Assembly (NCBI GenBank): GCA_001802945.1
Contig: MHAK01000077.1
Location: 37,520-101,519 of the forward strand
Direction: 5' to 3'
DNA from: Ignavibacteria bacterium RIFCSPLOWO2_12_FULL_56_21
Lineage (GTDB): Bacteria; Bacteroidota; Ignavibacteria; UBA10030
DNA length: 64,000 bases
Shown here: in pieces, positions 39,516-56,346 of the stretch
Layout: every line of letters starts with the position of its first letter
How positions within the stretch are numbered: the first letter of the stretch is position 1
Program-made: the position numbers and the translations under genes
Notes under the pieces: generated by a model
The model's database searches: none
What the model saw: the letters and a program-made list of their open reading frames with translations, nothing else
Told to the model about the DNA's origin: nothing

Positions 39516-39641
39516 GAATGATTCCCACTTTCCTTGGTATGAACCGGCTCAACGTGTTTCCTATCAAGGCCGATTTCGGGCTCATGTCAAAGTTTGCCTG
39601 TAGCAATCATCCCAACCTTTAGCGATATCAAACCTTCTCGA

Positions 39642-39670
39642 TTGCACTCCCTTCCATTCATTGGTATATT
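39642..39670 (+). promoter_or_regulatory. Candidate promoter for bshC
   Basis: TTGCAC-17 nt-TATATT, with the -10 box ending 28 nt before ATG 39699. Confidence 0.35.
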
Positions 39671-39698
39671 CAACCACTTCGCACTCACTGGACATCGC

Positions 39699-41339
39699 AT
39701 GCAATCAATCGACTTTAACGATTTTACATCTTCCGACCTGGGCCTGAGCAGACTCTTTCTCGATTATCTGACAGATCATCAACGCGTACGGTCGTTCTTT
39801 CCGAGGAACTTTCGGAATTCCAAAGATTGGGAATCGACGTTGCGCGACGTAAGCTCCCGGTCGTTGGACAGATCGGCGCTCGTCCAGGTTCTCTCTCAAC
39901 AAAACCGGAATTTTCAATGTGGCGTCAAGACCCTCGCGAATATCGACCTCCTTCTGAACGATAATACGGTCGCCATCGTCACCGGACAACAAGTGGGAAT
40001 GTTCACGGGGCCCATGTATACGCTCTACAAAACGCTTACAGCCATCCGCCTTGCTGAACAACTTGGGAAGCGTCATCCCGACCACACGTTCGTTCCCGTC
40101 TTCTGGATCGAGGGAGAGGACCACGACGTGGAAGAAGTCACGTCCGTCAAGCTCTTCACGGCGACCAACGACCTCGCGACATACACATATCCTGTGGAGG
40201 GACATTCCCAGGGGAAGAACCTCGGCGCGGTCGGCGTCATTCCATTCACCGACGCCATCGTCGCTTTTGTCGACCAGATACGAAAAGGTGTGACCCAGAC
40301 GGAATTCACAGACGGGGTCATCAACCTTTTTTCGACGGCGTACCAACCCGGAATGACATTCACCCGCGCGTTCGTTCATTTATTGAATGATCTGCTGGGC
40401 GATACCGGGTTGATCTATATCGACCCAAATGACGCGGGATTGAAGAAACTTCTGGCTCCGGTCTTTCGGACGGATCTCTACGAAACTCCGCGCTTGTGTC
40501 AACTCGTCGTCGACACGAGCGTGCAACTGGAGCAGCAGTATCATGCTCAGGTCAAACCTCGTCCCGTGAATTCCTTCCTGTTCCATAACGGAGGACGCTT
40601 TCCCATCGAGCCTCATGCCCAAGGGTTTGCCCTGAAGGGAACACGCCAGCACTATTCCAAGGAAGAACTGCTCGCCCTTCTGGACGCTCATCCTGAATAC
40701 TTCAGTCCGAACGTCGTCTTGCGGCCGCTGTGTCAGGATACCCTCCTTCCGACCGCGGCCTATGTGGCAGGCCCCGCAGAGGTCGCCTATTTTGCCCAGA
40801 TCATTCCTCTCTACAAGGAATTCGGCATCCCTGTCCCCGTCATCTACCCGCGCGCCAGCGCCACAATTCTGGAAGAGAAAGTCGAGAAAGTTCTTACACG
40901 TTTCGCATTGCAGCCCCAGGAATTGTTCGGCGGCATCGATTTCATCAAAACGCGGGTCGCCGGCCAGGTTTCTGATTTCAAGGCGGAAGAATTGTTCGGA
41001 GCGACGATCGGTTCGGTGGAAGAATCGCTTAACAGCCTTCGGTCGGGACTTCAAAAGATCGACCCGACGCTGTTGGGAGCTTTGGACAACACCCTCGATA
41101 AGATGCGCTCGCACATTCTTGTTCTGAAACAGAAGACCGCTGCGGCACAGCAGCGACAGCACGAGGTCTTCATGCGTCAGATCGACAAGGCCTCATTGTT
41201 CGTCGTGCCGGAAGGCTCTTTTCAGGAACGGAAGATCAACGTGCTCTACTACCTGAACAAGTACGGGCCGGAGTTTGTGCGGTGGCTGGACGGCGAATTG
41301 AAGATCGATGCGTTTAAGCATCAGTTGATCCGGCTTTGA
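39699..41339 (+). CDS. bshC: Bacillithiol biosynthesis cysteine-adding enzyme
   Basis: Start moved to ATG 39699, giving 547 aa. N-terminal LSRLFLDYL..VRSFF and overall BshC-like length and sequence. Confidence 0.85.
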   Translation: MQSIDFNDFTSSDLGLSRLFLDYLTDHQRVRSFFPRNFRNSKDWESTLRDVSSRSLDRSALVQVLSQQNRNFQCGVKTLANIDLLLNDNTVAIVTGQQVGMFTGPMYTLYKTLTAIRLAEQLGKRHPDHTFVPVFWIEGEDHDVEEVTSVKLFTATNDLATYTYPVEGHSQGKNLGAVGVIPFTDAIVAFVDQIRKGVTQTEFTDGVINLFSTAYQPGMTFTRAFVHLLNDLLGDTGLIYIDPNDAGLKKLLAPVFRTDLYETPRLCQLVVDTSVQLEQQYHAQVKPRPVNSFLFHNGGRFPIEPHAQGFALKGTRQHYSKEELLALLDAHPEYFSPNVVLRPLCQDTLLPTAAYVAGPAEVAYFAQIIPLYKEFGIPVPVIYPRASATILEEKVEKVLTRFALQPQELFGGIDFIKTRVAGQVSDFKAEELFGATIGSVEESLNSLRSGLQKIDPTLLGALDNTLDKMRSHILVLKQKTAAAQQRQHEVFMRQIDKASLFVVPEGSFQERKINVLYYLNKYGPEFVRWLDGELKIDAFKHQLIRL

Positions 41340-41390
41340 GAATCTAATTCGTCAGTTAGAGAAGGCACAACGTAAGTCAGTAGAAATGAA

Positions 41391-41428
41391 AAGCCCCGGT
41401 CGATGTCTGCCCGGGGCTTCTTCTTATT
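41391..41428 (+). terminator. Rho-independent terminator of bshC
   Basis: AAGCCCCGG-11 nt-CCGGGGCTT followed by CTTCTTATT. Confidence 0.75.
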
Positions 41429-41431
41429 CAC

Positions 41432-41646
41432 CCCGTCGGTCCCCGACGGGAGCATTTTCGCTTGAGCCTCCGCCGACCATAAATGGTCGGCTTGAGTTCA
41501 CACGGTCGCTCCGCGACCGCGTGCGACTGCCTGAGACTAGATGTGGCGGCCCTTCCCGTCCCGAAGGGACGGTGTGAACTTAACCCGACCGTTTACGGTC
41601 GGGTAAGCAACCTAAGACCGAACGCCGCGTCGCGGTAGCGACGCGG
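41432..41646. repeat. Array of six GC-rich short-loop hairpins (REP/BIME-like)
   Basis: H1 41432-41450 CCCGTCGG/tcc/CCGACGGG. H2 41472-41491 GCCGACCA/taaa/TGGTCGGC. H3 41503-41519 CGGTCGC/tcc/GCGACCG. H4 41556-41572 CCGTCCC/gaa/GGGACGG. H5 41583-41604 ACCCGACCG/ttta/CGGTCGGGT. H6 41625-41646 CCGCGTCGC/ggta/GCGACGCGG. Confidence 0.85.
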
Positions 41647-41651
41647 TGATG

Positions 41652-42749
41652 TCAGATGATCCGTTCCGTTTCTTTGTCGAAGAAATGCAGCCGGCCCGTG
41701 TCGAACAGCAGTTCGAACGATTGTCCAACCCGCGGACGTTCATCTCCTTCGACTCGTGCTACATATTGGGGACCATTTCTCTTCGACTGAAAGTACACAT
41801 AGATCTCATTCCCCATCGGTTCCACAACTTCTACATGCACTCGCGACTTCACGGCGCCTGCCACTTTCGTGCGGCCGATGTGTTCCGGCCGTAAGCCGAC
41901 GACCACGGGCTTTCCGACGTATCTCGACAATCGCCGGTGATTCTTTCGCGGGATCGCTAATTCAACTCCCCCTCCCTGTTCCTCGAAAGAGATTCCCTTC
42001 TTCTTCGTGACAGTACCTTCCATGAAATTCATCGCCGGACTGCCGATAAACCCGGCCACAAATCTGTTCGAAGGCTTATTGTAGATATCCAAGGGCGTAT
42101 CGATCTGCTGGACGATGCCGTCCTTCATGAGAACGATTCGGTCGGCCATGGTCATGGCTTCCGTTTGATCGTGTGTCACATAGATCATGGTAGCGCCGAG
42201 ACGCTGGTGGAGCTTGGAGATCTCCGTTCGCATTTGTACGCGGAGCTTTGCGTCGAGATTGCTCAGCGGTTCGTCGAACAGGAAAACCTTCGGTTTGCGC
42301 ACGATCGCGCGACCAACGGCCACGCGCTGGCGCTGCCCGCCCGACAACGCCTTTGGCTTTCGGTCCAGATACTGCTCAATGCCGAGGATCTGTGCCGCCT
42401 CCCGCACGCGACGTTCGATCTCGTCCTTGGGAAACTTCCGGAGCTTCAGCCCGAATGCCATGTTCTCGTACACGGTCATGTGTGGATACAGGGCGTAGTT
42501 CTGGAACACCATCGCGATGTCCCGATCCTTCGGCGGAACATCGTTCACGACCTGGCCGTCAATGAAGATCTTCCCTGCCGATATCTCCTCGAGACCGGCG
42601 ATCATGCGAAGTGTGGTGGATTTGCCGCAGCCCGAGGGACCTACGAGGACGACGAATTCTTTGTCGCGAATGTCGAGGGAAAAGCTGTGGACGGCAGTGA
42701 TGCCGCCTTCGTAGACTTTCTTGACCTCTTCGAGACGTACGCTGGCCAC
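41652..42749 (-). CDS. Sugar-type ABC transporter ATP-binding protein (MalK/UgpC/MsmX family), with no adjacent permease or binding protein
   Basis: GPSGCGKST Walker A, LSGGQRQR signature, FLFDEPLSNLD Walker B, and a C-terminal MalK-like regulatory domain. Confidence 0.92.
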   Translation of the reverse strand: MASVRLEEVKKVYEGGITAVHSFSLDIRDKEFVVLVGPSGCGKSTTLRMIAGLEEISAGKIFIDGQVVNDVPPKDRDIAMVFQNYALYPHMTVYENMAFGLKLRKFPKDEIERRVREAAQILGIEQYLDRKPKALSGGQRQRVAVGRAIVRKPKVFLFDEPLSNLDAKLRVQMRTEISKLHQRLGATMIYVTHDQTEAMTMADRIVLMKDGIVQQIDTPLDIYNKPSNRFVAGFIGSPAMNFMEGTVTKKKGISFEEQGGGVELAIPRKNHRRLSRYVGKPVVVGLRPEHIGRTKVAGAVKSRVHVEVVEPMGNEIYVYFQSKRNGPQYVARVEGDERPRVGQSFELLFDTGRLHFFDKETERII

Positions 42750-56202: not shown

Positions 56203-56346
56203 CGACCAGCGGTTCGACCCTTCGGTGAACTCAGGGTCGCTCTGAGCGACCGTAGGGAGTCGAAGGGCGACTTGCCTATCGGCTCGCTCGCCATTCCGAG
56301 CTTGCCTACGGCGGGTAAACTCCGTCGAGGGACCTCGGGCGAGGTC
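56203..56346. repeat. Second GC-rich hairpin / 30-nt tandem array
   Basis: GGTCGC/tctga/GCGACC at 56235-56251. AGTCG/aaggg/CGACT at 56258-56272. GACCTC/gggc/GAGGTC at 56331-56346. CTTGCCTA occurs at 56271 and 56301, 30 nt apart. Confidence 0.7.

Follow-up and report, generated by a model that had tools for sequence, protein, structure and literature searches.

Between two convergent genes of Ignavibacteria bacterium RIFCSPLOWO2_12_FULL_56_21, encoding a bacillithiol synthase-type protein (bshC) and a MalK/UgpC-type ABC ATPase, six GC-rich hairpins stand in tandem (positions 41432-41646 of the window, the 64,000-nt stretch of contig MHAK01000077.1 analyzed here). What kind of element is this array, and how did it come to occupy the spacer? 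A sequence-only reading of the window had described six stems that differ from each other, and likened their organization to that of the repetitive extragenic palindromic (REP) sequences and bacterial interspersed mosaic elements (BIMEs) of enterobacteria, possibly bound by a REP-associated tyrosine transposase (RAYT). Our analysis leads us to regard the array, with a probability of roughly 0.78, as a REPIN-like doublet of a dispersed REP-like DNA repeat, cognate to a single-copy HUH/Y1 transposase gene on another contig of the same genome (C16:71060-71509; contigs are numbered C1 onward). The REP/RAYT-like reading is in this sense largely right, but the class of the enzyme and the structure of the repeat unit differ from the classical system.

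The six perfect GC-rich hairpins of the sequence-only reading are all present. Hairpin A (41432-41450; inverted-repeat search) has a stem of 8 bp and a TCC loop; hairpin B (41472-41491) has arms of 9 bp; hairpin C (41499-41523) is paired at 10 of 11 bp, with the perfect core GGTCGC/GCGACC; hairpin D (41556-41572) has a stem of 7 bp and a GAA loop; hairpin E (41583-41604) has arms of 10 bp; and hairpin F (41625-41646) has a stem of 9 bp and a GGTA loop. The linkers singled out by that reading are real as well: CTTGAG is part of the word GCTTGAG at 41460 and 41490, and GAGTTCACAC and GTGTGAACT are parts of a 45-nt inverted repeat (82%; 41473-41517 versus 41558-41602) that joins B-C to D-E. The description of each stem as different in sequence, however, does not stand. 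Read in reverse complement, hairpins F, E and D correspond to A, B and C, respectively, and the array is therefore composed not of six unrelated stems but of two inverted copies of one three-hairpin module of ~93 nt (h1-h2-h3), with the h3 ends facing each other. Iterated nhmmer profiles seeded with A-B-C and with D-E-F converge on the same sites in opposite orientations.

In the copy on the plus strand, M(+) (41428-41519), a TCAC tag is followed by h1 (41432-41450), a linker, h2 (41472-41491), TTCACA and the h3 core (41503-41519). The copy on the minus strand, M(-) (41556-41649), comprises h3' (41556-41572), h2' (41583-41604) and h1' (41625-41646), and ends in GTGA (41646-41649), the reverse complement of the tag. 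Scored against R1, a covariance model built from 15 copies of the module, they reach 93.7 and 93.5 bits, respectively (both E = 1e-18). The 36-nt spacer between them (41520-41555) is unique to the locus, with no match elsewhere in the genome. A full module runs from the TCAC tag and h1 across a variable linker of ~20 nt to h2, from which the word (T/A)TCACA leads to h3, with the tag 5' of both h1 and h3. These two hairpins are of one type: their stem core, CGTC...GACG, is invariant and their loop has 3-4 nt; the stem core of h2 is GACC...GGTC. The outer ends of the doublet, TCAC and GTGA, are the limit of homology between loci.

The pairing of the module is conserved through compensatory change. 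In an alignment of 15 copies from this genome and a sister species (below), 96.8% of cells are paired and compensatory double changes occur in 11 of the 23 pairs, a combination of pairing and compensation that none of 500 shuffles matched; sliding the 3' partner left 25-41% paired. G-U wobble accounts for 2 of 345 cells (0.6%), versus 47 double changes. The near-absence of G-U next to so many double changes is unusual for RNA and fits a palindrome selected as two-strand DNA. The region 41380-41660 folds with high stability as RNA (z = -7.7 on the plus and -8.0 on the minus strand, with none of 200 shuffles as stable), as does the array region folded as DNA (z = -7.4).

The module is a dispersed repeat. 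The genome is a metagenome-assembled genome (MAG) of 138 contigs and 3.36 Mb, carrying 83 C-terminal sorting domains of the type IX secretion system. The presence of bshC would suggest Firmicutes, an origin rejected in view of these domains and of the nearest relatives of the Y1 protein (below). A census across the genome, of the kind that the sequence-only reading had proposed, counted perfect GC-rich stems with 7 bp or more and identified the array as the largest GC-rich hairpin cluster (7 counted, versus 5 in the runner-up). Related units are found at four other loci; the hairpins are therefore not unique to this spacer, the outcome that reading had named as speaking against it. In total, about 13 modules are found at five loci, on contigs C77 (the window), C135, C72, C109 and C16. 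R1 yields 12 matches in this genome at E <= 0.001, and the family is also found by blastn and nhmmer. A sister species of the same genus (G003) has 16 matches, and the R1 search, covering 40 relatives, found no module in the remaining 38, of which four belong to the same genus and 34 to the same family or order. At the other loci and in G003 it recurs at E = 1e-15 to 1e-18. All five loci have their modules downstream of gene 3' ends, in convergent spacers at three of them; identity between loci is 80-90%, and truncated or interrupted copies occur at C72 and C135. As repeats break or gap the assembly of a MAG, these counts are lower bounds. Runs of N stand inside or beside modules in both species (21 bases at C16:71029-71049 of this genome, G000; ~100 bases at loci L009 and L108 of G003), and the gap on C16 conceals a whole module and spacer that are visible in L118, an ungapped assembly of the same population.

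The search for an IS200/IS605-like tnpA gene suggested by the sequence-only reading yielded a gene bracketed by module doublets both here and in G003. Pfam Y1_Tnp identifies seven genes in the genome, of which only C16:71060-71509 (minus strand) lies among modules. It encodes a protein of 150 aa (Y1_Tnp, 97 bits) whose closest solved structures are the TnpA proteins of IS608 and ISDra2. In an alignment with IS608 TnpA, the HUH motif corresponds to DHSH and the Y127/Q131 motif to RYINNQ; as both the catalytic HUH and the YxxxQ tyrosine are kept, the enzyme looks intact. It matches the IS200 model of NCBIfam (NF033573; 78.6 bits, cut-off 55), but not the RAYT model (NF047646), and its Y motif is YINNQEEHH, not YI--NP. 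Of the proposed REP/BIME-like array with a REP-associated Y1 transposase, the organization and the Y1 link are thus borne out, and a canonical RAYT is not. The gene is single-copy, the other Y1 genes of the genome being at most 40% identical.

Gene and module also share their distribution. Among the 40 genomes, the sole close homologue of the C16 protein is found in G003 (59% identity; the next best in the genus is ~30% identical), so that orthologue and module both occur only in these two genomes. The nearest relatives of the protein beyond them are from Kapaibacteria, Bacteroidota and Acidobacteria. In G003 the gene is likewise bracketed by inverted modules, with h1 nearest the gene. The identical protein is encoded in other assemblies of the same groundwater population (matching NCBI assemblies GCA_0018022xx to GCA_0018046xx). 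In L118, the ungapped locus reads doublet (two modules converging on a spacer), 97 nt, gene, 8 nt, second doublet in the same layout, and a terminator-like hairpin, T (described below); the two 237-nt doublets are ~99% identical, spacer included. In one other metagenome sample with the identical gene (L121; ENA ERZ27254803, k141_1328387, 91-1287), an IS256-family (Transposase_mut) gene lies directly upstream, in the position of the upstream doublet of L118, a strain-level rearrangement at the Y1 locus.

REP, BIME and REPIN sequences together with their RAYT (TnpA-REP) genes have been termed 'REPtrons' (Nunvar 2010; Bertels & Rainey 2011, PMC3116915; Ton-Hoang 2012, PMC3333891). In common with them, the system described here has GC-rich palindromes that lie outside genes and bear a short conserved tag on the 5' side, doublets in inverted orientation and sites past gene 3' ends, as well as a single-copy HUH/Y1 gene that is bracketed by the same repeats and co-occurs with them in a lineage; the layout of L118 is the arrangement to which Ton-Hoang et al. 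(PMC3333891) gave the name. It differs in its unit, a 93-nt three-hairpin module in place of the single imperfect palindrome, 20-40 nt long, of the classical system; in its tag, TCAC instead of GTAG; in its copy number, ~13 (16 in G003), possibly under-counted in a draft MAG, against hundreds; and in its enzyme, which has Y---Q--HH and lacks a match to NF047646, whereas the class 2 enzymes (TnpA-REP) have YI--NP.

TIRtrons are conceptually close, as they consist of Y1 genes (TIRYTs) flanked by long, sometimes doubly palindromic inverted repeats that form moderately abundant families, in dimers or clusters, also in Acidobacteria (Di Nocera et al., 2013, PMC3733652). Most TIRYTs, however, belong to subclass 2.1, with ~238 aa, a helix-turn-helix tail and GGGGWSAS repeats (Quentin et al., PMC6006769); the C16 protein has 150 aa and is of class 1 type, and the module is free of GGGGWSAS. 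The CGTC-tagged REPs of Di Nocera 2013 do not correspond either, since their CGTC is terminal and unpaired, their stems are AT-first and their tail is CCA, and the CGTC of the module lies inside a stem. The layout of hairpin plus short tag resembles the subterminal ends of IS200/IS605 insertion sequences (IS) and of their miniature inverted-repeat and palindrome-associated derivatives (MITEs, PATEs). An IS of this family was nonetheless rejected: multiple near-identical whole elements are not present, the C16 gene has one copy, without near-identical duplicates and without tnpB, and the non-coding copies are inverted doublets in which the modules alone are repeated, not units running from left end to right end. 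The exclusion of a CRISPR array by the sequence-only reading was correct, as the units are inverted and there is no family of identical direct repeats at a regular period.

By its sequence signature, the C16 transposase is a member of TnpA-Y1 subclass 1.2. This subclass is characterized by Y---Q--HH, WQ and a length of ~148 aa with a conserved C-terminal tail; its copies are few per genome, with low mutual identity, and it was described without associated REPs or terminal secondary structures (Quentin et al. 2018, PMC6006769). The C16 protein has YINNQEEHH, FQWQDGYG, 150 aa and a C-terminal tail of roughly 30 aa, and differs in its HUH motif, DHSH instead of DH[IV]H. In keeping with the subclass, the genome has five low-copy paralogues, C16 and four that are at most 40% identical to it (C58:18417-18905, C44:7380-7859, C39:1509-1961 and C45:1322-1786). 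What differs from the published description is that the genes are bracketed by multi-hairpin repeats that recur elsewhere in the genome: all five paralogues have their own repeat on both flanks, each with a few dispersed copies, and the C39 gene is adjoined by a pair of GGAACCCCGTAGGGGTTCCAC hairpins.

Flanking repeats of this kind extend to other phyla. About two-thirds of 45 homologous loci share repeats between their flanks, far above shuffled controls, and the several loci that were inspected show multi-hairpin modules. At an Acidobacteriales locus (L023), for example, the unit GTCCCGCC..GGCGGGAC / CCCACCAT..ATGGTGGG / GTCCCGCC..GGCGGGAC is found on both sides, inverted. A search with R1 at 88 distant Y1 loci gave almost nothing; the exact module is genus-specific, and distant Y1 loci have hairpin repeats of their own. 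Four-hairpin repeats flanking a Y1 homologue in a Kapaibacterium MAG (L020; 2794-2955 and 3493-3641) produce spurious matches to the Rfam family 'mir-358' (31-41 bits, below the gathering score), indicating that DNA palindromes can pass for RNA families.

One Rfam family deserves attention in this respect. Searched at E up to 10, the window gave sub-threshold matches only, and no known RNA family could be assigned to the array. The sole match with E < 0.1 was to Acido-Lenti-1 (RF01687), at 25.3 bits where the gathering score is 37; it aligns the full model (1-46 of 46) with 41557-41603 on the minus strand, which is h2-linker-h3 in the sense orientation of M(-). The best copy from G003 reaches 34.0 bits, also under 37, and by the Rfam criterion neither is therefore a member. 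Judged from this alignment, the h2-h3 part of the module is a distant, sub-threshold relative of Acido-Lenti-1, with which it shares two hairpins and a 12-nt linker, and from which the module differs by the additional hairpin h1.

The likeness extends to genomic context, as true copies of Acido-Lenti-1 are dispersed, often as inverted pairs, and bracket homologues of the C16 Y1 gene. Matches above threshold lie directly beside Y1 homologues in Blastocatellia, Kapaibacterium and unclassified MAGs, and matches just below it beside several others. Five genomes with such loci hold 150 Acido-Lenti-1 matches in ~20 Mb (27-52 copies in four of the five, one in the fifth), many in inverted pairs 100-200 nt apart. 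Among 21 subclass 1.2 genes of these five genomes, 13 have a match within 400 nt, where ~0.2 would be expected from match density; the usual pattern is one match on each side, in opposite orientation. In the window's own taxonomic order, six RF01687 matches are likewise located within 400 nt of subclass 1.2 genes. At 40 further, mostly Bacteroidota, Y1 loci, RF01687 reaches its gathering threshold at one only, and the link covers part of subclass 1.2, not the whole. Acido-Lenti-1 was graded 'probably RNA' on covariation, and only an occasional nearby group II intron was mentioned (Weinberg et al. 2010, PMC2864571); Rfam and two 2026 preprints list it as a small RNA (sRNA) of unknown function and mention no transposase. 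On balance, we favor the view that Acido-Lenti-1 and relatives such as the three-hairpin module are not RNA genes but DNA-level, REP-like partner repeats of subclass 1.2, which would form a second 'REPtron' lineage that arose from the IS200 side, independently of TnpA-REP/RAYT, with a private hairpin family for each paralogue.

How, then, did the doublet come to lie between bshC and the ATPase gene? The left neighbor, bshC (39594-41339, plus strand), is an open reading frame (ORF) whose identical counterpart in other assemblies carries the Pfam domains Rossmann-like_BshC and CC_BshC, with orthologues in seven relatives. The ATPase gene (ORF at 41652-42749, minus strand; Pfam ABC_tran, OB_MalK and TOBE_2) has its stop codon 2 nt from the end of the module. 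In other assemblies, only a 5-enolpyruvylshikimate-3-phosphate (EPSP) synthase gene and bshC are called beside it, with no permease or binding-protein gene within 1.5 kb. The convergent pair is kept in five genomes of the same genus and one of another genus. In these six relatives, the spacer measures 60-140 nt, has a terminator near the bshC stop codon and is free of modules, even in the module-bearing G003; in the window it measures 312 nt. From this comparison, the doublet is a lineage-specific insertion that apparently entered the spacer after the split from the sister species, and it accounts for a spacer 3-5 times longer than that of the relatives. Nine contigs from other samples of the population have the same 312-nt spacer with 0-5 single-nucleotide polymorphisms, so the insertion appears to be fixed in the population.

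Between bshC and the array lies hairpin T (41391-41428), which is terminator-like on both strands: its stem (41391-41419) is formed by GCCCCGG, an 11-nt loop and CCGGGGC (9 bp), followed by the T-rich tail CTTCTTATT. The sequence-only reading took it for an ordinary bshC terminator. Its hairpin and T-rich tail are indeed there, but it may not be ordinary: it is found on the h1 side of the module at all five loci (C77, C135, C72, C16 and C109), with a TCGATGT loop in three copies, and it replaces the type seen in relatives, where the bshC terminator has another sequence and lies 5-15 nt past the stop codon. Its presence at the five loci and the different terminators of the relatives suggest that T travels with the element. 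The T stem has 24 occurrences genome-wide, most of them unaccompanied by modules, which counts against its belonging to the element, and a preferential insertion of modules beside T-like terminators is equally possible. That no T-tracts follow the six stems, as stated in the sequence-only reading, was confirmed, and a consensus scan of the region found no terminator and no promoter. With a T-rich tail at hairpin T only, the six stems are not simple intrinsic terminators. Nor did the scan detect a terminator-like site between the ATPase stop codon and hairpin T, and the ATPase transcript must therefore cross all six hairpins to reach T. A 63-aa ORF with an ATG start (41386-41577, plus strand) spans hairpin T and the first four hairpins, and is most likely an artefact of GC-rich palindromes.

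These features raise the alternative that the modules act mainly as RNA, as a structured 3' untranslated element or small RNA that acts on the convergent transcripts by stabilizing or terminating them, with a secondary link to the transposase gene. Very stable folds on both strands, copies that always lie past gene 3' ends and beside a terminator-like hairpin, the obligatory transcription of the hairpins with the ATPase gene, and the 'probably RNA' grade given to Acido-Lenti-1 on covariation by Weinberg et al. 2010 (PMC2864571) are consistent with it. However, the module is present in both orientations inside one spacer, and elsewhere in either orientation relative to its neighbor genes; its pairing is maintained almost wholly by Watson-Crick double changes, with 0.6% G-U, as a palindrome in two-strand DNA predicts; it is found only where the Y1 orthologue occurs, and brackets that gene; and no promoter-like site was found by the consensus scan of the region. 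We consider a primary role as RNA unlikely. A side effect is another matter. REPs slow 3'-exonuclease decay in E. coli. The ATPase mRNA has six hairpins in its 3' untranslated region, upstream of its sole terminator-like hairpin, and these may do the same here; an influence on the stability or termination of both the ATPase and bshC mRNAs is plausible by this analogy.

It could also be argued that the modules now have neither activity nor host function, being inert remnants of the ends, since decayed, of an IS200-type insertion sequence that multiplied in the past. Low copy number, the 80-90% identity between loci, the damaged copies at C72 and C135, the lack of polymorphism within the population and the filing of the protein as an IS200/IS605 transposase by NCBIfam would agree with this. 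Neutral relics would, however, lose their pairing, and compensatory changes keep these hairpins across two species whose proteins are ~60-65% identical. Moreover, each of the two species has the Y1 gene once and intact, unlike a multi-copy IS, the doublets that bracket it are ~99% identical, and the bshC/MalK-type spacer was invaded after the species split. This makes decay alone distinctly improbable as an explanation. That the hairpins accumulated by chance, or that the array is a series of ordinary terminators, can be dismissed: convergent spacers often contain hairpins and terminator stems of the GCCCCGG type are common in this genome, but the array folds at z of about -8 relative to shuffles, its stems lack T-tracts, and the census refutes it; with E = 1e-15 to 1e-18, the 93-nt module is found again at other loci as well as in a second species.

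For the preferred reading, a doublet of REP-like repeats cognate to the Y1 enzyme, we infer a mechanism by analogy with the TnpA proteins of IS608 and ISDra2 and with E. coli TnpA-REP, and the same applies to binding, cleavage and transposition by the enzyme and to any effect at the RNA level. The enzyme would recognize the hairpins as single-stranded DNA, and would cleave and rejoin near the TCAC tag. Modules or doublets would thereby move or be copied into gene-free 3' spacers, usually beside a terminator, and insertions would survive only where such spacers render them harmless. In this manner a doublet would have reached the bshC/MalK-type spacer after the lineage had split from its sister species.

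Several observations weigh against this reading. The C16 protein lacks RAYT signatures, and its subclass was published as free of REPs. Copy number is low, with ~13 modules at five loci compared to tens to hundreds for classical REPs. The spacers between modules vary in length and sequence from locus to locus, so that something other than the doublet may be the unit that transposes, the Y1 locus excepted. There is no direct sign of current mobility, as neither an empty site nor a presence/absence polymorphism was seen among the nine population contigs. Finally, a comparison of 9 kb on each side of the Y1 gene showed no synteny between the two species, which leaves a strictly vertical, 'domesticated' inheritance unsupported.

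Two further hairpin elements were observed in the course of the analysis. An array upstream of trpE (56203-56346) contains GGTCGC-TCTGA-GCGACC after GGTGAACTCA and resembles h3 with its linker. It was considered as a second copy of the module and rejected, because it has one GGTCGC/GCGACC stem in common, but R1 gave no match at 56203-56346 at E up to 1 with filters off; it may be either a degenerate relic or a member of another family. At four sites (C12:39759-39808, C80:22754-22805, C96:8340-8390 and C99:36035-36092), a double-hairpin element of an unrelated type, with GAGATCTC at its center, is located in or beside tRNA-like sequence; on C80, a duplicated tRNA 3' end is found on both sides of it.

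REPs and RAYTs are the textbook example of a domesticated transposase that is accompanied by a population of non-autonomous repeats. To our knowledge, such systems have been described almost entirely for class 2 enzymes in Proteobacteria. Here, the same arrangement is found around a class 1, IS200-like enzyme in a bacterium of the Fibrobacteres-Chlorobi-Bacteroidetes (FCB) group, probably of the Ignavibacteria, with a composite three-hairpin unit, a setting that has not been reported. It bears on two gaps in the record, namely the description of subclass 1.2 as repeat-free and the role that Acido-Lenti-1 plays. If the link between them holds, RF01687 should no longer be annotated as a small RNA but as a DNA repeat that is mobile or REP-like. 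As its one genome combines five paralogues with a private repeat family for each, this organism would be suited to the study of how the specificity of Y1 enzymes and their hairpins co-evolves.

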